Source of the DNA: Mustelus asterias
Lineage: Eukaryota
Length of the DNA stretch: 64,000 nucleotides
Direction of reading: 5' to 3'
Assembly (NCBI RefSeq): GCF_964213995.1
Contig: NC_135808.1
Location: 43,400,001-43,464,000, forward strand
Of this stretch, positions 7,131 to 61,939 are shown one piece after another. A program made the translations under genes and the position numbers. Within the stretch, counting starts at the first letter, position 1, and each line of letters starts with the position of its first letter. The notes beneath the pieces are model-generated. The model saw only the letters and a list, made by a program, of their open reading frames with translations. It was not told the DNA's origin and made no database searches.

Positions 7131-9194
7131 ATGGGGAATGCTAATGAGCGAAATTAAGTATGGTTCTGAGGGACGGTCGAGGGTCACAGATTGTGGAGTC
7201 GATTTGAGTGGAAGTTGCAAATGCCAAAGGAAGGAAGAGAGTGGTAGGAGTGTTTTATAAGCTGCCAAAAAGTAGCCACACTGTAGGAAAAAGTTTAAAA
7301 TCAAGAAATAACAGATGCATATAAATAGAGCACTGCATTAATCATGGGCGACTTTAATTTTCATATAGATTGCTCTAATCAAATTGAAATGGCAGCCAAG
7401 AGAATGAATTCGTAGAGTGCATTCAGGATTTTTTTGGAACAATATGTTATGGAGAAAATTAGGGATCAGGCTATTTTGGATCTGGTAATGAGGTAGGTTT
7501 GATAAATGATCTCAAGGTTAACGATCCCTTAGGAAATAGTGATCACAGTATGATGGAATTTAGCATTCAGCTTGAGTGTGAGAAAATTAGGACTGAAATA
7601 TCAGTGTTAAACTTAAAGAAGGGAAATTATTAAGGCATTCGGATGGAATTAGCCTAAGTGGATTAGTCATATAGATTAGTGGAGAAGCCAGTAGATCAGT
7701 GGCTGACATGTAGGGAGATAATTCATCACTCCCAGCAAAAATACATTCCAATGAGGAGGAATGACTCAAAAGGGAAAAGAAAACCTATCATGGATAACCG
7801 GGGAAGTTAAGGAGGGCAGTAAGTTGAAAGTAGAAACATTTAAGCTGGAAAAGGTAGTGGTAGGCCAGAAAAGTGGGATAGATTCAGAATGTAGTAAAGA
7901 TGGAGTAAAAAGAAATCAGGAGAGGAAAATAAACGAAAATGATAAAAACAGACAATGAGGTTTTTTTTACATGTATTAAAAGGAAGGCAAAACTTAAAGA
8001 AAGCATTGGCTCCTTAGAGAATGAAACTGGGTAAGTAATTATGAGAAACAAAGAAATGGCAGAGGAGTTAAATAGATATTTTGCATTGGTTTTTTGCTGT
8101 AGAGGATACTACAAGCATCCCAGAAATAGAAAAAATATTTATGGGGGGAATTAAATATAATCACCATCACCAGAGAAATAGTTTTAGGAAAACTCATGAG
8201 GGTAAATGCTGACAAGCCCCCTGTAGCTGATGGTTTGTACCCCAGGTTCTGAAAGAAGGTAGCGACAGAATTTGTTTTTTGGAGCAAGCCAGGAATGAAT
8301 TTGTGTTTGCCCGGTCCATTCTGAGCATAGACTTTGTAACTTTTTAAGGATGGAGTAAAATTATTTTTTAAAAAATGATATAGCTACAGAGATCATGATG
8401 CATTGGTAGTCATTTTCCAACATTCCTTGAAATCCGGAACAGTGTGGAAGGATTGGAAAACTGCCAATTTGGTCCTCATGTTCAAAAAGGAAAGAGCCAA
8501 AATGCAGGAAACTACAGGTCAGTTAGTCTAAGTTCAGTTATTGGAAAATATTAGAATTGATTATTAAGAATAGAATATATTCACATGAGCAGTCTGGGAA
8601 TGGAGGGATACAAACGAATGGTCGAGTTGGACCAATGAGCGGCACAGGCTTGGAGGGCCGAAGGGCCTGTTTCCTGTGCTGTATTGTTCTTTGTTCTTTG
8701 TAATAGCAGTGCATTTGGAATGTCACAATCTGATCAAACAGAGTTAGCATGATTTCATGAAGGGGAAATCATGCTTTACAAAATTACCAGAGTTCTTTGA
8801 GGTATATCAGCCAGAATGGATCGAGGAGAACCAGTCGATTTTGCATCTTTAAATTTTCAAAAGGCATTTGATGGGGTGCCATAAAAAAAGCTACTATACA
8901 AGATAGGAGCTCATGGTGTTGGAAATAATATTCTGGCATGTATAGCGGATTGGCTAACTAACGGGAAACAGTGAGTAGTGATAAGGGAATCTTTCAAGGT
9001 GGAGGGTGCCACAGGGATCAGTGCTCAGACTACAGTTCTTCACAATATATATTAATGATTTGGAGGACGGAACAGAGTGTACTATTGTTAAATTTACAGA
9101 TGATTTCAAAGGGTGGGAGGGAAGGCAGGTTGTAAGGAAGATTTATATAGGTTACAGGACAATATTGATACGTTACAGACAGATATTGACAGGT

Positions 9195-13060: not shown

Positions 13061-13401
13061 AATCTGAAGATCACTAGTGGCTTCAGGAAGGGAGATATGC
13101 CCCCTGACTGGATAGGGAGTTTACAGACATAGCGAGATAGCACAATTAATAGGAATATATATCTTGGGTGTTGAAACCCAGGACCACTTGCAGAGTGAGA
13201 TTTAACTTGGAGATGCTAAAACAAAGAATAATTAAAGACTAAGGGTTGGACAAAGTGTCTGGAAATTAACAATGGATTTACATTAATATTAAGCGGACCG
13301 TCCCTGTACATTAATTGGCAGCTATTAACATGTACCCTCGACCTATTGAAACTGGAATTCTGCTATCTCCCAGAATTGGACACGACCTCTGGGAAGATAT
13401 A

Positions 13402-13748
13402 GGGCGGCACGGTAGCACAGTGGTTAGCACTGCTGCTTCACAGCTCCAGGGTCCTGGGTTCGATTCCCAGCTCGGGTCACTGTCTGTGTGGAGTTTGCAC
13501 ATTCTCCTCGTGTCTGCGTGGGTTTCCTCCGGGTGCTCCGGTTTCCTCCCACAGTCCAAAGATGTGCGGGTTAGGTTGATTGGCCAGGTTAAAAAAAAAA
13601 ATTGCCCCTTAGAGTCCTGGGATGTGTAGGTTAGAGGGATTAGCGGGTAAAATATATGGGGGTAGGGCCTGGGTGGGATTGTGGTCGGTGCAGACTCGAT
13701 GGGCCGAATGACCTCCTTCTGCACTGTAGGGATTCTATGATTTCTATG
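13402..13748 (+). mobile_element. HE1 SINE, full length
   Basis: gggcggcacggtagcacagtggttagcac… head, V-type core, tail ending ttctatgatttctatg; near-identical copies at 17155-17481(-) and 60243-60592(+). Confidence 0.9.
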
Positions 13749-16378: not shown

Positions 16379-19300
16379 ATAGAAACATAGAAAAACTACA
16401 GCACAAAACAGGCCCTTCGGCCCCACAAGTTGTGCCGAACATATCCCTACCTTTTTAGGCCTACCTGTAACCCTCCATCCTATTAAGTCCCATATACTCA
16501 TCCAGGAGTCTCTTAAAAGACCCTATTGAGTTTGTCTCCACCACCACTGACGGCAGTCGATTCCACTCGCCCACCACCCTCTGTGAAAAACTTACCCCTA
16601 ACATCTCCCCTGTACCTACCCCCCAGCACCTTAAACCTGTGTCCTCTCGTAGCAGCCATTTCCACCCTGGGAAAAAGCCTCTGAGAGTCCACCCGATCTA
16701 TGCCTCTCAACATCTTGTATACCTCTATTAGGTCTCCTCTCATCCTACGTCTCTCCAAGGAGAAAAGACCGAGCTCCCTCAGCCTATCCTCATAAGGCAT
16801 GCCACTCAATCCAGGCAACATCCTTGTAAATCTCCTCTGCACTTTTTCAATCTTTTCCACATCCTTCCTGTAATGAGGCGACCAGAACTGAGCACAGTAC
16901 TCCAAGTGGGGTCTGACGAGGGTCTTATATAGCTGCATCATTATCCCCGGACTCCTAAACTCAATCCCTCGATTGATAAAGGCCAGCATGCCATACGCTG
17001 CCTTAACCACCTCCTCCACCTGCGGGGCCGATTTCAGAATCCTATGGACCCGGACCCCAAGGTCCTTCTGATCCTCTACAGTACAGTCTTTCCCTTTATA
17101 TTGTACTCCTTCATCCCATTTGACCTACCAAAATGGACCACTATGCATTTCATAGAATTCATAGAAACCCGACAGTGCAGAAGGAGGCCATTCGGCCCAT
17201 CGAGTCTGCACCGACCACAATCCCACCCAGGCCCTACCCCCACATATTTACCCGCTAATCTACGCATCTCAGGACTCTAAGGGGCAATTTTTAACCTGGC
17301 CAATCAACCTAACCCGCACATCTTTGGACTGTGGGAGGAAACCGGAGCACCCGGGGGAAACCCACGCAGACACGAGGAGAATGTGCAAACTCCACACAGA
17401 CAGTGACCCGAGCCGGGAATCGAACCCGGGATCCTGGAGCTATGAAGCAGCAGTGCTAACCACTGTGCTACCGTGCCGCCCCTGCATTTATCTGGGTTGA
17501 AGTCCATCTGCCACTTCTCCGCCCAGTCTTGCATCCTATCTATGTCCCTCTGTAACTTCTGACATCCCTCCGGACTATCCACAACCCCACCAACCTTTAT
17601 GTTGTCGGCAAACTTACCAACCCATCCCTCCACTTCCTCATCCAGGTCATTTATGAAAATGACAAACAGCAAGGGTCCCAGAACAGATCCCTGGGGCACT
17701 CCACTGGTGACTGACCTCCATTTAGAAAAAGACCCATCTATACCCACTCTCTGCCTTCTGCAGGCAAGCCAGTTCTGGATCCACAGGGCAGCAGCCCCTT
17801 GGATCCCATGCCCTCACTTTTTCTAGAAGCCTTGCATGGGGGACCTTATTGAACGCCTTGCTAAAATCCATATAAACCACATCTATCGCTTTCCCTTAGT
17901 CAATGTGTTTAGTCACATTTTCGAAGAACTCCACAGGCTCGTAAGGCACGATCTGCCTTTGACAAAGCCATGCTGAGTATTCTTGAGCATACTAAACCTC
18001 TCTAAATGCTCATAAATCTTGCCCCTCAGGATCTTCTCCATCAGCTTACCAACCACTGAGGTTAGACTCACCGGTCAGTAATTTCCTGGGCTATCCCTGT
18101 TCCCCTTCTTGAAAATAGGAACCACATCTGCAATCCTCCAGCACCTCTCCCGTCTCCATCGATGACGCAAAGATCATCACCGGAGGCTCATCAATCTCTT
18201 CCCTCGCCTCCCACAGTAACCTGGGGTACATCCCATCCGGACCCGGCGACTTATCTATCTTGATGCCATTCAAAGATTCCAGCACAACCTCTTTGTTAAA
18301 TTCCACATACTCAATCTTTTCAGTCCACCGCAGGCCCACAGTACATCCACCCACGTCCTCTGTGAAAACCGAGGCAAAATACTCATTAAGCACCTCTGCC
18401 ATTTCTACTGGTTCCGTACAGATTTTCCTGCCTTCACCTTTTATAGGCCCTATTCCTTCACGTCTCATCCTTTTACTCTTCACATATTTATAGAACGCCT
18501 TAGGGTTTTCCTCAATCGTTCCTGCCAAGGCCTTCTCGTGACCCCTTCTGGCTCTCCTAATTTTCTTCTTTAGTCCCTTCCTACAAGCCGTATACTCTTC
18601 TAAATCCCTATCTTCGCCAAGCTCTCTGAACCTTTTGTACACTTTCCTTTTCTTCTCAACTAGGTCGCGCACAGCTTTCGTGCACCACAGTTCCTTTAAC
18701 CGACCAACTCCTCCCTGTCTGCTCGGAACGTTGTCCTGTAGAACCCTAGACAGACATTCCTTGAAAAACTGCCACCTCTCTTCAGTACGTTTCCCTGAAA
18801 ATACCTTCTTCCAGTTCACTCCTCTAATTTGCTGCCTTATTTTCCCCTTACTCCATATAAACGCTTTCCTAGCTTGCCTGATCCCCTCTTTTTCCAATGC
18901 AAGCGTAAAGGAGATAGAGTTATGATCGCTATCCCCAAGATGCTCTCCCACTGAGATCTGACATCTGTCCAGGTCCATTGGTCAGTATCAGATCAAGTAC
19001 AGCCTCTCCTCTTGTCGGCTTGTCCTGTGTCAGGAAACCCTCCTGAACACACCTAACAAACTCCTCCCCATCCAATCCCCTTACCCTCGGGATATTCCAA
19101 TCTATGTTTGGGAAATTAAAGTCTCCCATCACAACAACTCTGCTATTACTGCATCTCTCCAGGATCTGTTTCCCTATCCGCTCCTCCACCTCCCTGTTAC
19201 TATTGGGCGGCCTATAGAAAACTCCCAGCAAAGTGATCGACCCCTTCCCACTCCGAACTTCCACCCACAGAGACTCTGTCGACAATCCCTCCACAGCTTA

Positions 19301-25290: not shown

Positions 25291-26374
25291 AGTCTCGCTG
25301 CTTTTTCACTTGATGCTTCTATAGATTTCCAACTCAGTGAAAGCTGAGATCCACCAGCCAGTGTGTAAGACACAAGCTCCAGTGATGGAGGGAATAACTT
25401 TGACAGATGATGATATTACAGAGATAGGAATAGATTGTAGAGAATGACTGATGGAAAATGGTGAATGACAGTTATGATGCATGTTGAGATATGTGACCAG
25501 GCTGAACGAGAGAATCTGTGGAAATTCACCTTGCCTCCCTGCGATCCTGTGGAAATGTGGTGATTCAGAAAAGCTAAGGATGAAAGGACACTAAGTGTGA
25601 CATAGGTGTGAGATTGAAGAGCAGGCTGAATTAAAACCACTTCAAACACACAATTCGCTGCGTTGTTTTGTAAAAATGAGTTGACTGAAGAAACACGTGA
25701 TGTTCAGTGTAGAAACAGAAGATTGAGACAATCAGATCCCCCTCTGAAACTACCACTGAGTGAGGATGTATTAGCAATAACAAGAGCAAAAAGATCCAGA
25801 GACACGATTGAGATTGTATTTGCCGGCTGAATTTTAAATTTTTCACTCCCAAGTTGTGTTAATTTCTGTAACATAATGAATATTCAACACTGTTTTAATA
25901 AAACATGGAACTATTGTTTGTGTCTGTTTCTCATTCCACTCAGAAAGTTGTTTAAACCCAGCCTCACAGGATTAATGAGAAAAGCCAAAACCATAAGCCG
26001 TACCATAGAATCCCTACAGAGACCGTTTGGCCCATCAAGTCTGCACTGACTCTCCAAAAGAGCATCTTACCAGGCTGCCCCACTGCAATAGCCGTAACCC
26101 TGTGCATTTACCATGGCCAATCCACCGAACCTACATATGTCTTCACATTGACCATGCAATTTAGCATAGTCAATCTATCCAAGCTGCACATCTTTGTCTG
26201 ATGCATATAGTTTGATGTGCTGACTTCCCCTTTAGAGTATGGGTCAGGTGACCCATGGGCAATTGATCCACCCAGTGTAGGACGCTGTGGACAGTCTCAG
26301 AGCTGACTGCGAATGAGTGCAGATCTTCAATAAACAGCTCCCAGTATTCAAGCCTACCTAAGATTCTTTGTGAA

Positions 26375-26702
26375 ATAAAGTTTATTTATTAGTCACAAGT
26401 AGGCTGACAACACTGCAGTGAAATTACTGTGAAAGTCCCCTAAATTCTCCCTCAGTGTACCCGAACAGGCACCGGAGTGTGGCGATATCAAATCAAGTTG
26501 CCACTCTCCGGTGCCTGTTCGGGTACACTTAGGGAGAATTTAGCATAGCCAATGTACCGAACCAACACATCTTCTGGACTGTGGGAAGAAACCCACACAG
26601 CCAGAGGTGAATGTGCAGACTTCGCACAGACAGTGACACAAGGCGGGAATCGAACCCGGGTCCTTGGTGCTGTGATGTAGCAGCACTAACCACTGTGCGG
26701 CC
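26375..26702 (-). mobile_element. V-type tRNA SINE with an internal inverted duplication, nested in an LTR-like fragment inside an HE1 SINE (about 26005-26880)
   Basis: Head ccgcacagtggttagtgc…ggttcgattccc on -, tail …gtgactaataaataaa; the flanking HE1 core is split between catctttg (about 26196) and gactgtggg (about 26736). Confidence 0.75.
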
Positions 26703-27334
26703 CCTTAGTTCGCAGCAATAATACAGAATACTTCCGACTGTGGGAGGAAATGAGCACCCATAGGAAACCCATGTAGACACGGTGAGAACATGCAAATTCC
26801 ACACAGTCAGCCAAGGTCAGAATTGAACTCAGGTCCCTGGCAATGTGAGCCAGCAATGTTTACCACTGTGCCACCCTGCCACCTGATTCTCTTGGAGGTT
26901 GTGCCCGCTGTATGGTTTACAGAGTTCACTCGGTCAGCAGCTGAGCCCAGGACAAACCCCAGTGTGTAATATCCCATTGGAAAATTCACCTCTTCCCCAG
27001 CCTCTGTCGCGCTTTGATCAGAAGACACTTTCTGGTAGACAAATGTCCTGAAGACACTGCAGAAATTCACACCCTTTCTGAGAAAAACTTAACCCAAGCT
27101 CTATTAAACTTTCGCTCCCAGAATTTACTACAGGCTTGTCTATTCCAGGGATTCTCAACCAGAAGTAAGAAGATTTCAAGGGAAATATTTGAAAAGTCTG
27201 ATGTGAGTGTTTAATATCAGTGATCAGACACAGGATGGTGCTGCCACCCAATCCTTTCCCCAGGAACTGAAGCTGTAACAGTGTCGCATTGAGCAGAGTT
27301 TCAGTCTCTGCTTTATTCAGATTAAGAGAGTCAC

Positions 27335-27404
27335 CGAATGTTCCGCCCATTGAAGTAGACAGTGCCTGAAAACTGATCCAGAGGCAATTCCGGGAGTTCC
27401 TCAT
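27335..27404 (-). other. Putative orphan leader (signal-peptide) exon
   Basis: agcATG with A at -3; MRNSRNCLWISFQALSTSMGGTF(G); 70 nt ending phase 1 at a weak donor G|GTGACT; preceded by TATA and IRF sites. Confidence 0.4.
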
Positions 27405-27473
27405 GCTGAACTAGACAGTGACAGAAAACTGTTCCAGTGGCAATGTCTCTTTACCTGTTGACAGAACCAAGGG

Positions 27474-27516
27474 TTATATAGCTCCTTCCTGAGTTTCAGC
27501 GTTTCACTTTTAGTCA
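27474..27516 (-). promoter_or_regulatory. IRF/ISRE-like element plus TATA box
   Basis: The - strand reads TGACTAAAAGTGAAACGCTGAAACTC-AGGAAG-GAGC-TATATAA; the TATA ends 70 nt before the ATG at 27404. Confidence 0.5.
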
Positions 27517-27583
27517 GAGAATGGGAAAAACATTTGCAACTGAATAGCAGTTGAGGGAATAGTCATTCTCTGGTTCATTCCCC

Positions 27584-28670
27584 TGTGACGATACTGTGCC
27601 TTTAAGAAATGCATTTGTCATGTTTTTTTTAATACTTTTCCAATTCAATCAAATCAAATCCAATTCAGAGTCTCAACAAGTTGAGACATTTCAGATCCAG
27701 GCTGACAAGACAGGACGGGAGACCAAAACCACCCTGTCCTGGGCCTGATCTACATGAGTCAAGCTGATTGGAGAAGGGGGAGGATCCTCCTCCAAGACTT
27801 GAGCTCATTTGCATCTTAGCCAAAAGGCTTGAGTGCAACATGTTTTTAGCCGACTCTTCCATTTATCGGTGCTGCTGGGCCCATATCTGGCAGCCCAGTA
27901 ATGGTACTGCAGCAGTATAATTTCTATAATGTTTGTTTTAATTTGGACTCTTGTTGTTTTGGTGGTCCCCCTGGGTATTTGCAGTGTAGGATGTGATTAG
28001 GTTGATTGACAGATAAGGTTGAATGACTGGGTGGAGCTTGGTTTACACAGAACATTCAAGCTTCGTTGCTATTTTGATGCTGCTTGGAGTTGGTGGAGAG
28101 CCGTGCCTTTCTTTTCCCCCTCTGTGAAGTTGGAGACTTGAATCTGCCAGGAAATAAGTCTCTTTCGTTGAGAAGGTGCTGGTTGGAAGCTGCAGAGTCA
28201 GATCGCCCTTTAAACTCTGAAGTTTGGAGACTGGGAGTTGCCTGACACTATGTTTACTTCTCTGAAGTTCTGCTGTTTGAGGCTATATCCTCCTCTGATC
28301 TCTATCCAGAAGTGTTAAAAGGCTGGAAATCTAGCCACATGAGCATATTTTGTTTTTGTGCCAACTAATTGTGAAGAAGGGTGTATATCTATGGGGATAT
28401 TGCTTTAAATTGGAACTATAGAGATTGCTAGTTGTTAAGAATCTTACTTTGTCTTGTTGAAATATTTTAATTGGTAAACGGTGTGCTAAGTGTTTTTGCT
28501 GTATTCTAACTGTGCTCTTAAATAATATTTGATTTGATAAAAGTGGGTCAATTGAATCATACCTGGAGCAAAACACCTTATGCTCACCCTACTGTCATAA
28601 TCAAAAGTAAAAGTTGGGGTCTAGCCTAACTTCGTAATATACCTTGGAGTTTCTGATCTGGTCCCTAACA
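27584..28670 (+). mobile_element. Solo LTR (Gypsy-like) containing a nested retroposon
   Basis: TGTGA…TAACA termini; 4-bp TSD cccc at 27580-27583 and 28671-28674. Confidence 0.7.
27628..27838 (-). mobile_element. Short poly(A) retroposon with a U2 snRNA-derived 5' head (SINEU-like)
   Basis: 5' end CTCAAGCCTTTTGGCTAAGAT (16-nt exact match to U2 nt 12-27 as recalled); ATTAAA + poly(A) at the 3' end; TSD catgttttt at 27619-27627 and 27839-27847. Confidence 0.7.
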
Positions 28671-29169
28671 CCCCAGAGTAATGACCAATCAGTCGACTTG
28701 CCTGATTTGAATTTGAACAAAGCTTGGCAGTTAACAGTTCCGTGCTGCATTCTACAAGACAATGCCTCCACCAATCAGAGCCCACTTGCCAACCAATCAG
28801 CACTCTTCTGATGCAGTACAAGTTGTTGTCCCCCAGTTACAGTTGGGTCATTTCTTCCGAATATTTTTGATGAGAGTAAGACGGCAGGCTTAGATAGCAT
28901 GTCTCTCTTTTCACCAAGACCCTGTATTTACTGTTGGACATGAGACAGCCCAGACACTGCCCATTGGAGAAAGGATGGTGGAGGATTAAATTTACATCAT
29001 CTAGCAATTTAGCAGCTGAGAACAGGATCTGGCCAGATCTGGTGATGGATGGTAAACCAGTTCATCAACATATCAGTTCCCATTCCTATCTCTTGTACTT
29101 AAGAAAATGAATATAAAGTCTGTACCCAGGGAAAGGGTCAGGATGAGAGGGGATTGGTTTTATTGGGGA

Positions 29170-29500
29170 CTCGGACATCTCAGGTGGGGGTGAGTAAATC
29201 AGTAGCTGCAGAAATGTTGTGGTGAACGGAGGTGTAAAGGCCGAGTGTGTTGGGATTTGGAGAGTGCGGTTGTTAGTGAATTGGGGAATAGTTTATTCCA
29301 GGGATGGATACAGAAGGTGGAGCTGGAATGTGGGAGGAGGTGTGGGTGCTGAGTAATACATGGAAGTGATCAGAGACGGTCTCCTCTGTGATTGATATGA
29401 TATGAATAGTGAGACCAGGTGAAGTGGGCAAGCAAGGAAACTTCTGGAAAGACAATTATTTCTCACATACAATCTACACTTTGTCAGCATTAATTACTGA
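29170..29500 (-). mobile_element. Ancient LINE (L2-like) endonuclease fragment
   Basis: ORF 29273..29455 includes ISITEETVSDHFHV (APE SDH motif). Confidence 0.5.
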
Positions 29501-29672
29501 CAGACAAATTCAAATCGTGATGCTGTCAGCTCATTACTGGAGTGTTTGGAATGGATCCAATCTGGTTGTTGATGAAAAGAAAGGGGTGGCCCACAAAATG
29601 GCATCAGAATTTGTAGTGATTGCATCGCGACAAAGGGTCAAAGTTCCAATCACCAAACCCTCATCTTTTACA

Positions 29673-29745
29673 GCCCCACTGGCCTAATGGATAAGGAGCT
29701 GTCTTCCTAAACCAGGGATTGTATGTTCAAGTCCTATCCGGGGTG
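29673..29745 (+). tRNA. tRNA-Arg(CCT) pseudogene
   Basis: 73 nt colinear with vertebrate tRNA-Arg-CCT (GCCCCA.TGGCCTAATGGATAAGG…CCTAA.CCAGGGATTGT…GGGGTG); anticodon at 29706-29708; mismatches in acceptor, anticodon and T stems. Confidence 0.85.
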
Positions 29746-30540
29746 GAGTAAAGTTTGATCTCGAAACAAATGTCAAAGCTCCTCCTCTCGACATTGTCAC
29801 ATTCTGTGACAATCAGATAACTTTCTGTTTAACCTCCCAACCAATCTGGGCAGTTCCTGTTCAACCTCCTTCTCACTCTGTCATTGGCTTTCCACTGACA
29901 CAAAACAATGCAATGTTTCTCCCAAGTTGTGCACCATCCCAACACTCGAGGAACAATGGCCCAAAACCCCTGGAGAGTCGGAGGCTGGATGTCCCTCAGA
30001 CGATGTACTACAGGATCCCTTGAATATCTCAACACAACAGAAATTGATGTTAAGTGTGAATATGTGCTGGGCAATTCGTCTGCTCTCAGATTCTCAGAGA
30101 AACCTGCAGCTTTGAGTTAAATTGAGAGACTTTGGAGGGGCTGATTACCCTGGCAGACAAAAACAATTCTATTCCCACTCCTGGTTAACTGGTGCCAGAC
30201 CCCACTCTCCGTCCAATTTCCCTTTGACCAAACCTGATTGCCCTTACCTCCCAACTCCCTCTCCACCCAAATTATCTGACCCAACCATCATCCTACCCCA
30301 CCCTCCTACTATCCAGTTGCCACCGTTTGCCCTAGCCATTACCCACCTGACCTACTTAGCTCACAACCATATCACACACTATTACCTATCATACCCCTTA
30401 CCTTACCATCCTTCCCCTTCATCTTCCCTACTGTTTGTCTCACCCACCCTTCCCCAGGGCACTTGTTTTGCCAAATCTGCCATTTTACCCCCTTATCTCA
30501 CCCCACCCTACAACTTCACCAGCCCTACCTTCCTTACCAT

Positions 30541-31618: not shown

Positions 31619-33095
31619 TAAGAAGTCTCACAACACCAGGTTAAAGTCCAACAGGTTTATTTGGTGGTAAATACCATAAGCTTTCGGAGAACTGCTCCTT
31701 CGTCAGATGGAGTGGAAATGTGCTCTCAAACAGTGCAAACAGACAAAATCAAGTTGCAGAATACTGATTAGAATGCGAATCCTACAACCAGCCAGGTCTT
31801 AAAGGTACAGACAATGTGGGTGGAGGGAACATTAAACACAGGTTAAAGAGATGTGTATTGTCTCCAGACAGAACAGCTAGTGAGATTCTGCAAGCCCAGG
31901 AGGCAAGCTGTGGGGGTTACTGATAATGTGACATAAATCCAACATCCCGGTTTAGGCCGCCCTCATGTGTGCGGAACTTGGCTATCAGTTTCTGTTCAGC
32001 GACTCTGCGCTGTCATGTGTCGTGAAGGCCGCCTTGGTGAACGCTTACCTGAAGATCCAAGGCTGAATGCCCGTGACTGCTGAAGTGCTCCCCCACAGGA
32101 AGAGAACAGTCTTGCCTGGTAATTGTCGAGTGGTGTTCATTCATTCGTTGTCGTAGCGTCTGCATGGTTTCCCCAATGTACCATGCCTCGGGACATCCTT
32201 TCCTGCAGCGTATCAGGTAGACAATGTTGGTCGAGTTGCAAGAGTAGGTACCGTGTACCTGGTAGATGGTGTTCTCACGTGAGATGATGGCATCCGTGTC
32301 GATGATCCAGTACATCTTGCAGAGGTTGCTGTGGCAGGGTTGTGCGGTGTTGTGGTCACTGTTCTCCTGAAGGTTGGGTAGTTTTCTGTGGAAAATGGTC
32401 TGTTTGAGGTTGCGTGGTTGTTTGAAGGCAAGAAGTGGGGGTGTGGGGATGGCCTTGGCGAGATGTTCGTCTTCATCAATGACTTGTTGAAGGCTCCGGA
32501 GGAGATGCCGTAGCTTCTCCGCTCCGGGGAAGTACTGGACGACGAAGGGTACTCTGTCCACCGTGTCCCGTGTTTGTCTTCTGAGGAGGTCAGTGCGGTT
32601 TTTCGCTGTGGCGCGTCGGAACTGTTGATTGATGAGTCGAGCGCCATATCCTGTTCTTATGAGGGCATCTTTCAGCGTCTGGAGGTGTCTGTTGTGATCC
32701 TTCTCATCCGAGCAGATCCCGTGTATTCGGAGGGCTTGTCCGTAGGGGATGGCTTCTTTAACGTGTTTAGGGTGGAAGCTGGAGAAGTGGAGCATCATGA
32801 GGTTATCCGTGGGCTTGCGGTACAGTGAGGTGCTGAGGTGACCGTCCTTCATGGAGATGCGTGTGTCCAAGAATGCAACCGATTCCGGAGAGTAGTCCAT
32901 GGTGAGTCTGATGGTGGGATGGAACTTGTTGATGTCATCATATAGTTGTTTCAGTGATTGCTCACCATGACTCCAAAGGAAGAAAATATCATCGATGTAT
33001 CTAGTGTATAGCATCGGTTGAAGGTCCTGTGCGGTGAAGAAGTCTTGTTCGAACCTGTGCATGAAGGATCTCCACATCATGACTACCATCGACAC
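31619..33095 (-). mobile_element. Penelope retroelement 3 (diverged subfamily), 5'-truncated with a short inverted segment (33067-33095)
   Basis: RT C-terminus/GIY-YIG in ORF 32013..33254 with premature TGA; 13-bp TSD ggtaaaaaagcag at 31606-31618 and 33096-33108. Confidence 0.92.
31674..31715 (-). ncRNA. Hammerhead ribozyme motif (Penelope 3)
   Basis: ccat-CTGACGA-a-ggag(cagtt)ctcc-GAAA-gctt-atgg. Confidence 0.8.
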
Positions 33096-33809
33096 GGTAA
33101 AAAAGCAGGCATGGCTTGCCTTTCCCCAACACACCTGCACTACCAAAAGGGGTTCCCAAAAATACTGATACACTCCACATTTCTGAGGAGGCTCTGGTTC
33201 CGAAGAGTGGATGGGAAATGCAGAGCCGTGTAACAATCTAACAGTGGAGGCCACTCCTTGGAAGATTCGGCCCCATGGGCGAATTGAATGCTGGAATGGC
33301 TGAAGGGCTGAATGGCCTCCTCCTGTACCGATGTTGATAAGTTGTTCAGAAGATCCATGTCAAAAGACAGGGAAATGGAGCTGAGATATAGATCAGGTAT
33401 CGTGGGGTTAAATTAGCCCATCCCAGTCAGATCAGGAGCCACAGAACTCAGATTCTTGGGAGATATTCCAGATCCTTGTCTGAGGTAGTCTTCAAAGTTG
33501 CAGAGGTCGATTTACCATGGTAACAACCTGGACATGAGATTCAAGGAGGCACAGACCATATCATAGAAATCATAGAAACCCTACAGTACAGAAAGAGGCC
33601 ATTCGGCCCATCGAGTCTGCACCGACCACAATCCCACCCAGGCCCTACCCCCATATCTACCCACTAATCCCTCCAACCTACGCATCTCAGGACACTAAGG
33701 GCAATTTTTAGCATGGCCAATCAACCTAACCCGCACATCTTTGGACTGATAGATTAATCAATAGATAGATTGAAAGATGGTCGGATAGAAAAGAAGGAAG
33801 GTAGACTAT

Positions 33810-60242: not shown

Positions 60243-60592
60243 GGGCGGCACGGTAGCACAGTGGTTAGCACTGCTGCTTCACAGCTCCAGGGACCTGGGT
60301 TCGATTCCCGGCTTGGGTCACTGTCTGTGTGGAGTTTGCACATTCTCCTCGTGTTTGCGTGGGTTTCCTCCGGGTGCTCCGGTTTCCTCCCACAGTCCAA
60401 AGATGTGCGGGTTTGGTTGATTGGCCATGTTAAAATTGCCCCTTAGTGTTCTGAGATGCGTAGGTTAGAGGGATTAGTGGGTAAAATATGTAGGGATATG
60501 GGAGTAGGGCCTGGGTGGGATTGTGGTCGGTGCAAACTCGATGGGCTGAATGGCCTCTTTCTGTACTGTAGGGTTTCTATGATTTCTATGAT
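60243..60592 (+). mobile_element. HE1 SINE, full length
   Basis: Matches 13402-13748. Confidence 0.9.
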
Positions 60593-61939
60593 TGCATCAG
60601 TCTCGCTTTGTCCCAGTGAGGTTGGTTGCCAACTCCAAGAATATTTATATTTCCAAGTTTAGTTTCAGCTCAGTTTGATATTGTTCATTGTATAAACAAG
60701 TCCAGTCATTTAAAAATAAAGTGTGATCACAATGACTAACACGGGGGAATGTCACTGTCTACCTCATTGTTGTCTGAAAAAAAAGAAACCATTCAATCAT
60801 ACAGCGTCACATCCAAACAGCAAATACCCCGTTACTATAAATGATCTATCTTTGCAACATGTCAATTATGCATTTAGAAAAGATATGAAAATTAGAAACG
60901 TGAAAGCATTAGGAAAATCTGTCCTGAAGTTTGCGACTATCAACCTCCCAAATTTAGTTTTGATAAACCCAAAGCAAATTACTGCAGATACTGGAATCTG
61001 AAACAAAAACAGAAAGTCCTAGAAAATCTCAGCATGTCTGACAGTATTTGTGGAGAGGGAATAATGGTAAATTTCCAAGCTGGTAGAAAAGGTATTCTCT
61101 CAAACACATTCACATTTACATTTGACTCTCTATTGTTATAAGAATAAAAGTTAACTTGTATTAATGTCAGAAGCAGGATAAGCAAGGGGATTGGCCATAA
61201 TGAAGGGTTATGCTTGTGATACATTCTAAGTACAAAGTTCAACCTTTTCGGTACAAAATACATTAACCCTTTAGGTACAAAATACATTGAGTACAAAAAA
61301 CATTAACCCTTTCACTTCTTCAACAGGAAGGATGTAAATGCATTGGAGCCAGTGCTGAAGAGGTTTACAATACTGGGTCCATGAATGAAAAATTCAGCAA
61401 CCAGAATAGATTGGAGAGTTTTGCACTGTTTTCTTTGCAGAGAAGAAGAAGAGGAGGAAATTTGATATATGCGCTCAAAATCATGATAAGGCTGGATATG
61501 GTTGAGAAGGAGAAACTGTTCCTGCTCGTGAACGGATTAAGAATGAAAGGGCATAGGTTTAAAGTGATTTAGAAAAAAAAAGTGATGTGAGAAGGAAACT
61601 GTCTTCCACAATGAATTGTTCGGGTCTGGAATGAACTGCCGATTCAACCCAATTCAACCCAACTATTCAAAAGGGCATTGAGTCGTTATTCAAATAGAAA
61701 CAATGTGTAGAGCAACGGGGAAAAGGCAGGGGATGGCAATAAAGCCATTGAAAACCCGATGGGCTGAATATCTTCCTTCTGCCCTGTAACAATTCTGTGA
61801 TTCTATGATTACAGAAATATACAGTGAATTTGCAACTATTTGTAGATTCATGCAATAGCTGGACTAATGTTTTAAAAGAGGCCTGATTATCATTAAATTT
61901 GCTTATCTCAAAACATCATGTAACCATTTTCACGTGACA

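Follow-up and report, generated by a model that had tools for sequence, protein, structure and literature searches.

A young SINEU-type retroposon family built of U2 snRNA pieces in the shark Mustelus asterias and its probable link to U2 genes and a Keno-type LINE

The genome of Mustelus asterias contains a real and young SINEU-type retroposon family, and the copy studied here is a headless member of it. The copy lies in the window, the 64,000-nucleotide stretch of contig NC_135808.1 (positions 43,400,001 to 43,464,000) that was analysed. The full element is ~330 nt long and starts with U2 nt 1-39 (the head is 100% identical over 38 nt). In accordance with the definition of SINEU, the family has a 5' head from U1 or U2 snRNA (here U2, and lost from the window copy), is short (<500 nt) and non-coding with a 3' A-tail, shares one structure among 115 aligned copies, as a true multi-copy family does and a sum of independent chimeras does not, and has a target preference in common with a Tx1 family, using the same U2 site and sharing a TSD with a Keno-type LINE. 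The family identity of the window copy as a SINEU-type retroposon is near certain. The family consists largely of U2 pieces and, judging from sequence comparison, is probably transcribed from U2 gene promoters and probably copied by the Keno-type Tx1 LINE. The original prediction of an snRNA-headed, non-autonomous retroposon moved by Tx1 machinery holds at the level of the family, which is abundant, U2-headed and likely mobilised by a Tx1 element, but not for the window copy itself.

Anatomy of the window copy and its host LTR

The window copy occupies 27623..27828 on the minus strand and comprises the 3' 206 nt of an element of the youngest subfamily, truncated at its 5' end so that the U2 1-39 head and the first module are missing. 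The truncation point lies in an internal second U2 piece (27813..27828, minus strand), which corresponds to U2 nt 12-27 here and to nt 4-27 in full-length copies according to the family alignment. These 16 nt are 100% identical to the U2 genes of the same genome, and ~0.005 such matches are expected per 64 kb. An octamer motif (27807..27814, minus strand), likely altered U2 nt 26-33, is positioned at the end of the piece. It is followed by module 2 (27761..27806, minus strand), a hairpin that a shuffle-tested alignment traces to the 5' half of an older family, family B, and whose predicted stem is kept across variants. Module 3 (27649..27760, minus strand) consists of a long hairpin and then a segment that, by alignment via family B, is homologous to U2 nt ~40-100 and stops before the Sm site. 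An 8-bp hairpin at 27670..27687 (minus strand) falls at the position of U2 stem IIb via family B, the stem being placed from the Rfam alignment. The 3' end (27623..27640, minus strand) presents ATTAAA (27628-27633, minus strand) and then an 8-A tail, and, going by counts of the end motif, its final ~10 nt are similar to the terminus of Keno on the 3' side. The original prediction had listed the U2 match at 27813-27828, the octamer, the 8-bp hairpin, ATTAAA with the A-tail and a pair of 9-nt repeats (27619-27627 and 27839-27847), and all of them are present.

The 16-nt U2 match was taken in the prediction for the 5' head of the element, which is false, as 28 of 29 other loci run at least 103 nt further 5' than the window copy, up to a U2 nt 1-39 head. 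The true family head is located ~124 nt further 5' and is absent from the window copy. The possibility had been raised that copies extend 5' beyond the U2 match as the end of a known LINE; they do extend, but into a longer U2 head and not into a LINE. The window insertion by itself is an ordinary truncated copy and, with neither head nor promoter, is likely dead. Among the loci retrieved, 23 distinct ones share its 198-nt core without a difference, and the 206-nt copy folds with a z of -4.74 (0 of 200 shuffles equally good). In Rfam searches, the window copy alone gives no U2 match at E<=10, the whole window gives no meaningful match, and no ribozyme family is found in the SINE; a full-length family copy matches Rfam U2 with 43.9 bits (E 1.2e-07). 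ARAGORN finds no tRNA in 26000-30000, in line with the predicted lack of tRNA A and B boxes.

As predicted, the copy is nested in an LTR. The host is a solo LTR on the plus strand (27584 to about 28670) with TG...CA ends and 4-nt CCCC flanks, and its relatives are about 900-950 nt long. The predicted 9-bp TSD is doubtful. The 5' repeat is separated from the element by 10 nt, and the empty site in 10/10 LTR relatives examined contains a sequence resembling these 10 nt together with the second repeat. The segment 27829..27847 (minus strand), made up of the 10 nt and the 5' repeat, is likely original host LTR sequence, and the 9-bp repeat is probably a pre-existing near-repeat of the solo LTR rather than a TSD. 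The duplication at the window insertion is likely absent or very short, which is the simpler reading. This verdict is likely and not certain, because the LTR relatives used for the empty sites are only 72-81% identical to the window LTR. Elsewhere in the window, a 448-codon open frame (32016-33359, minus strand) has a translation that, by eye, resembles an RT of the Penelope type whose C-terminal part is GIY-YIG-like.

Size of the family and U2 ancestry of its body

A family search of the genome (3.68 Gb) yields 1,468 candidates, and the 40 that were scored are 99-100% identical. An internal-junction pattern matches 6,563 times genome-wide (control 0), and a U2-head pattern 6,584 times (control 1). 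The head/body junction differs between subfamilies, and that of the youngest subfamily has 252 exact matches. A U2-family search of the genome returns 135,653 'candidates', a rough figure and not a count, and a U4 search likewise returns 232,592. Of 115 distinct copies whose alignments span 180 nt or more and include the 3' end, 105 have their start in nt 1-16 of the reference, a full-length share that is inflated by a locus sample partly picked with head-containing patterns. A TSD of at least 8 nt is present in 62 of the 115 copies (mismatched-flank control mean 8.7, max 14), a count that tandem copies inflate. The A-tail is 8-9 nt long in 66 of the 106 copies measured. A tRNA-derived SINE (SINE2) is ruled out: there is no tRNA, there is an A-box-like match only and no B-box match, and T5 occurs in 110/115 copies.

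Across 121 copies, A-to-G is not in excess among the rare changes of the family as a whole (43 A>G, 41 T>C). An inverted copy at L208 (also L113), inserted head-to-head in the head of an older copy, carries 7 rare A-to-G changes and 1 T-to-C, which is suggestive of RNA editing before reverse transcription.

The body of the element is best read through family B (~215 nt, 1,757 candidates), which is older and simpler than the window family (family A) and represents a diverged U2 in which a short stretch is duplicated past nt 34 and the end is A-rich; 22 of its copies are 84-94% identical to their own consensus. Family B aligns with U2 nt 40-156 with a score of 96 (shuffle max 31, 0/500). The third module and tail of the window copy align in turn with family B with a score of 71 (shuffle max 37, 0/500), and blastn matches window 27649-27709 to a family B copy at E 5e-07. 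The second module of an old subfamily scores 48 against family B (shuffle max 31, 0/500); the window's own second module is weaker, with a score of 22 (5/500 shuffles). Aligned directly with U2, the tail is marginal (3 and 13 of 300 shuffles), and its U2 affinity holds only via family B. In the alignment, the window family ends before the Sm site of U2. According to these alignments, the body of the element is largely U2-derived, by way of family B, and the ~170 nt called a non-U2 body in the original prediction include a 3' part that traces back to U2. A partial family B copy is also present in the window at 8268-8360 (plus strand; 81% to a B copy, E 2e-18).

None of three candidate sources is clearly supported for module 1, which is absent from the window copy: against U4, at best 18/500 shuffles among 6 copies do as well, against an inverted copy of the head 15-180 of 500 (not significant), and against family B 6/500 in one old copy. 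At L254/L255 (G000:C1:112.24 Mb), module 1 is fused twice to nt 4-94 of a genuine U2 of the second type described below, a possible intermediate in the construction of the element.

The octamer is intact in 107/115 copies. The predicted spreading of Oct sites is true in the literal sense, but there is no sign of function. Within 1 mismatch, the octamer is absent from the 259-300 nt upstream of both U2 gene types and present upstream of U4. When compared by eye with family B and U2, it looks like mutated U2 sequence (altered nt 26-33) and not like a captured enhancer. In tandem arrays such as L026 and L051, the octamer of the upstream copy lies ~200 nt before the start of the next copy, near the usual enhancer distance; no PSE-like motif is seen by eye in these arrays.

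U2 gene clusters, the Keno-type LINE and rival explanations

U2 genes are arranged in arrays on C24. The LINE in an 8-kb array has a 3' flank that begins at U2 nt 38/39, an ORF1 with ZCCHC3-type RNA-binding domains and a zinc knuckle, and an ORF2 with endonuclease, RT, and zf-RVT domains. U2 nt 39 is given as the 3' flank of Keno/Utopia, and Keno is described as having an AP endonuclease (PMC4640811). The Mustelus element is likewise an AP endonuclease-RT LINE with its 3' flank at U2 nt 39, but it does not show strict U2 specificity: outside the 8-kb array, the 3' flank is something other than U2 in 13 of the 15 copies read. It is dispersed (912 candidates), and TSD-like repeats are visible at several dispersed copies. 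ORF2 is broken in the 8-kb-array copy and is open for 1,135 aa in one copy on C21.

The tandem unit at L081 (G000:C24:44,845,000-44,855,000) is 8,035 nt long, contains an intact U2 gene and a broken Keno with its own U2 head, and is amplified about 15 times with identical 3' ends. ORF2 of the array Keno is interrupted by an abundant ~350-nt repeat, copies of which are present in the window at 13400-13747, 17152-17481, 60243-60593, and other positions. The first ~15 nt of Keno after the U2 head (L081:2510-2560) appear to resemble the insert after the family B head (L201). An internally deleted Keno derivative with a U2 head lies at L083:3630-3900 and is preceded by what we take to be a U1 5' fragment.

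The SINE and Keno meet at the same sites. U2 nt 38-47 come after a SINE tail in 8 cases (control 0); in one of these (L230) the identity as a U2 gene is doubtful, and some go back to transduction from a common cluster. On C24, a single U2 gene harbours a SINE, then Keno, then another SINE, and at L006 the same order occurs with one shared TSD at a non-U2 site. The overall 3' alignment of the SINE with Keno is weak (2/200 shuffles equally good). A Keno-like terminal motif is present in 77/81 young, 19/24 intermediate, and 2/10 oldest copies, age being taken as identity to a young reference. A non-autonomous Keno formed by internal deletion is ruled out, since blastn finds nothing shared beyond U2 pieces, the 3' alignment is marginal, and such resemblances as exist at the termini are short.

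The main U2 upstream motif is joined to a SINE at exactly one place (C24), where the copy starts at +1 and is internally damaged. C21 carries U2 genes of a second type (175.5 bits), with about 90% identity to the main one, a 449-nt unit and different upstream DNA, and their cluster contains a near-intact SINE at +1 behind a full spacer. The C21 cluster (L247-L250, G000:C21:28,045,000-28,085,000) also shows dense Keno invasion and inverted blocks. The upstream flank of the second type is found 8 times within the cluster and 8 times dispersed (16 in all); 6 of the matches run into a SINE, with several different head junctions, and at two more dispersed loci the flank precedes Keno sequence. Six of seven checked dispersed composites with U2-locus DNA are bounded by TSDs of 10-17 nt, indicating that U2 upstream DNA has been retroposed. 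Therefore, the transduced RNAs were likely made in U2 clusters. About 6-7 such transduced copies are found among thousands of copies. At L251 (G000:C14:62.229-62.230 Mb), a TSD-bounded U2-cluster piece of 1.65 kb contains three SINE copies and nearly a whole spacer, and is possibly a relocated source locus.

The master copy under a U2 promoter that the prediction suggested looking for has a partial counterpart in the copies at +1 on C24 and C21, but none is found for the youngest subfamily. The promoter-linked SINE on C21 belongs to another subfamily (94% to the young reference; closest other fetched copies 96.9%), and a single young copy behind U2 upstream DNA on C14 differs from the young reference at a few positions. 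Among the copies at C24, C21, and C14, no promoter-linked source of the youngest subfamily, that of the window copy, is found. The upstream DNA of the second U2 type has no match to the PSE-like pattern and is assumed from its position to be a promoter. A permissive PSE-like search gives 3 matches, 2 of which are ordinary TSD-flanked insertions.

Copies of the family also lie close to one another. For the first 100 matches listed on C1, 10 of the 99 distances between neighbours measure at most 500 nt, compared with 0.075 expected, and none is between 500 and 5,000 nt. Of 27 adjacent pairs, 17 have the greater similarity to the young reference in the 5' copy and 4 in the 3' copy, with 6 tied. 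This bias for the 5' side of older copies may reflect homing through the U2 head, or it may reflect the reuse of favourable nick sites. At L084:4880-7222, seven tandem copies are separated by a few bases, with an adjoining family-B-like copy in the opposite direction.

SINEs normally have their own Pol III promoter, and an internal Pol III-type promoter built from U2 sequence would make any full-length copy a potential source. Many subfamilies and mostly full-length copies suit such many sources, the internal U2 piece matches an A-box consensus, and the youngest subfamily is without a located promoter-linked source. However, T4 is present in 115/115 copies and T5 in 110/115, of which the latter argues against Pol III transcription; the young reference has no B-box match; and the U2-locus DNA inside TSDs points to transcripts of U2 clusters. 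We consider an internal promoter improbable. Slightly less probable still is that the heads were added by template switching onto U2 snRNA, with bodies transcribed by chance from varied upstream promoters. The variable head/body junction and the Keno derivative with the presumed U1 fragment would suit this origin. The junction variants, however, are common to many copies (252 exact for one), the heads end at nt ~33-39, adjoining the Keno site, and the U2 upstream DNA that is carried along is absent from mature U2 RNA. Template switching combined with such chance transcription of the bodies is what has been proposed for crocodilian SINEU (PMC4494074).

Given transcription from U2 loci, another L1 or Tx1 family could still have moved most dispersed copies, with Keno responsible for the U2-gene insertions only. 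The SINE has little 3' sequence in common with Keno, which is the LINE compared on this question, and the TSD length and nick context seen here are generic for L1/Tx1. This division of labour nevertheless appears unlikely, in that Keno is itself dispersed with TSD-like repeats at several copies, Keno and two SINE copies share one TSD at a non-U2 site, and the younger subfamilies carry the Keno-like terminal motif. Predicted folding bears on a further alternative. Folding z is -8.3 and -8.9 in two copies and -2.7 in an old copy, the branch-site sequence is predicted in a stem in all 7 head variants seen in at least 2 copies, and predicted stems persist across variants while loops change. Strong folding with kept stems and variable loops could be expected if the copies were processed pseudogenes of a small RNA that is a functional, rapidly evolving variant of U2, but the element stops before the Sm site, promoter and flank searches find no TSD-free, tail-free gene with its own promoter, and many short-lived subfamilies fit a selfish element, so that we regard such an origin as very unlikely. 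Transcription from U2 gene promoters and copying by the Keno-type LINE is the reading that we retain as probable.

A proposed cycle and its relation to known systems

Amplification through U2 genes likely proceeds by a cycle of the following kind. The Keno protein would nick a U2 gene at nt 38/39 and reverse-transcribe SINE RNA there. The SINE head would merge with nt 1-39 of the gene, which would turn the copy into a source gene driven by the promoter of U2 (Pol II). In the transcript, a templated run of 8-9 A would prime new insertions, and read-through from neighbouring array units would give rise to transduced copies. With relaxed Keno targeting, most copies would end up in unrelated positions, preferentially on the 5' side of older copies. 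Modules would accumulate over time as elements inserted again and again at, or immediately before, the start of U2, and the head sequence able to pair with the branch site, predicted to be folded in a hairpin, would limit interference with splicing.

We put at somewhat better than even the wider proposal that this is a promoter-less SINE class bred in U2 genes by a relaxed Keno, in which a U2 module can be gained with each round, selection on the RNA keeps the branch-site sequence folded away, and new copies home to the 5' side of older ones; the same cycle could explain crocodilian SINEU. As part of this proposal, the series from U2 to family B to family A would be preserved in one genome. 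Because this local series suggests a separate origin, the Mustelus family likely arose independently of crocodilian SINEU.

SINEU-1, -2, and -3 are crocodilian families, none of which was found outside crocodilians in the 2015 description by Kojima (PMC4494074). Two other papers cite SINEU without a shark example in the passages concerned (PMC5381603, PMC5786205), and among the matches listed in the open-access PMC and bioRxiv literature we find no report of SINEU from a shark or other elasmobranch. The Mustelus family resembles crocodilian SINEU in its U2-derived head, A-tail, length of <500 nt, repeated addition of U2 pieces, internal oligo-T, tandem copies around a shared TSD, and a Tx1 partner inferred from shared targets, and SINEU-3 is likewise built of U2 fragments (PMC4494074). 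The Tx1-Mar partners of SINEU group with Keno (PMC4494074). The preferred target of SINEU is a Mariner element (Mariner-N4_AMi; PMC4494074), whereas in Mustelus the preferences seen are for U2 genes and for the 5' side of copies of the family itself. Unlike what is described for SINEU (PMC4494074), copies in Mustelus begin at +1 of U2 genes, DNA of U2 loci is transduced, and near-identical young copies coexist with an older U2-like precursor family.

The partner LINE agrees with Keno in having an AP-type endonuclease and in its position at U2 nt 38/39, the site that the SINE also uses (PMC4494074, PMC4640811). Keno is described as U2-specific, whereas the Mustelus LINE is widely dispersed (PMC4494074, PMC4640811); the SINE differs from Keno in being non-coding and is not an internally deleted Keno. 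As with R2 in 28S rRNA genes, site-specific insertion into a multicopy RNA gene would supply transcription (PMC4494074). In contrast to R2, the Mustelus case involves a non-autonomous passenger in a Pol II snRNA gene, and the majority of its copies are elsewhere.

The transcription mode of SINEU is posed as an open question in PMC4494074. In Mustelus asterias, a young SINEU-type family outside crocodilians occurs together with its older precursor family, candidate source loci within U2 clusters, and a LINE that may serve as helper and has a long open ORF2, which makes this question directly testable. In this shark, a splicing RNA has been remodelled into a parasite, and U2 5' fragments and octamer motifs have been scattered across the genome in their thousands. 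If true, the proposed cycle could account for the SINEU families of crocodilians as well.
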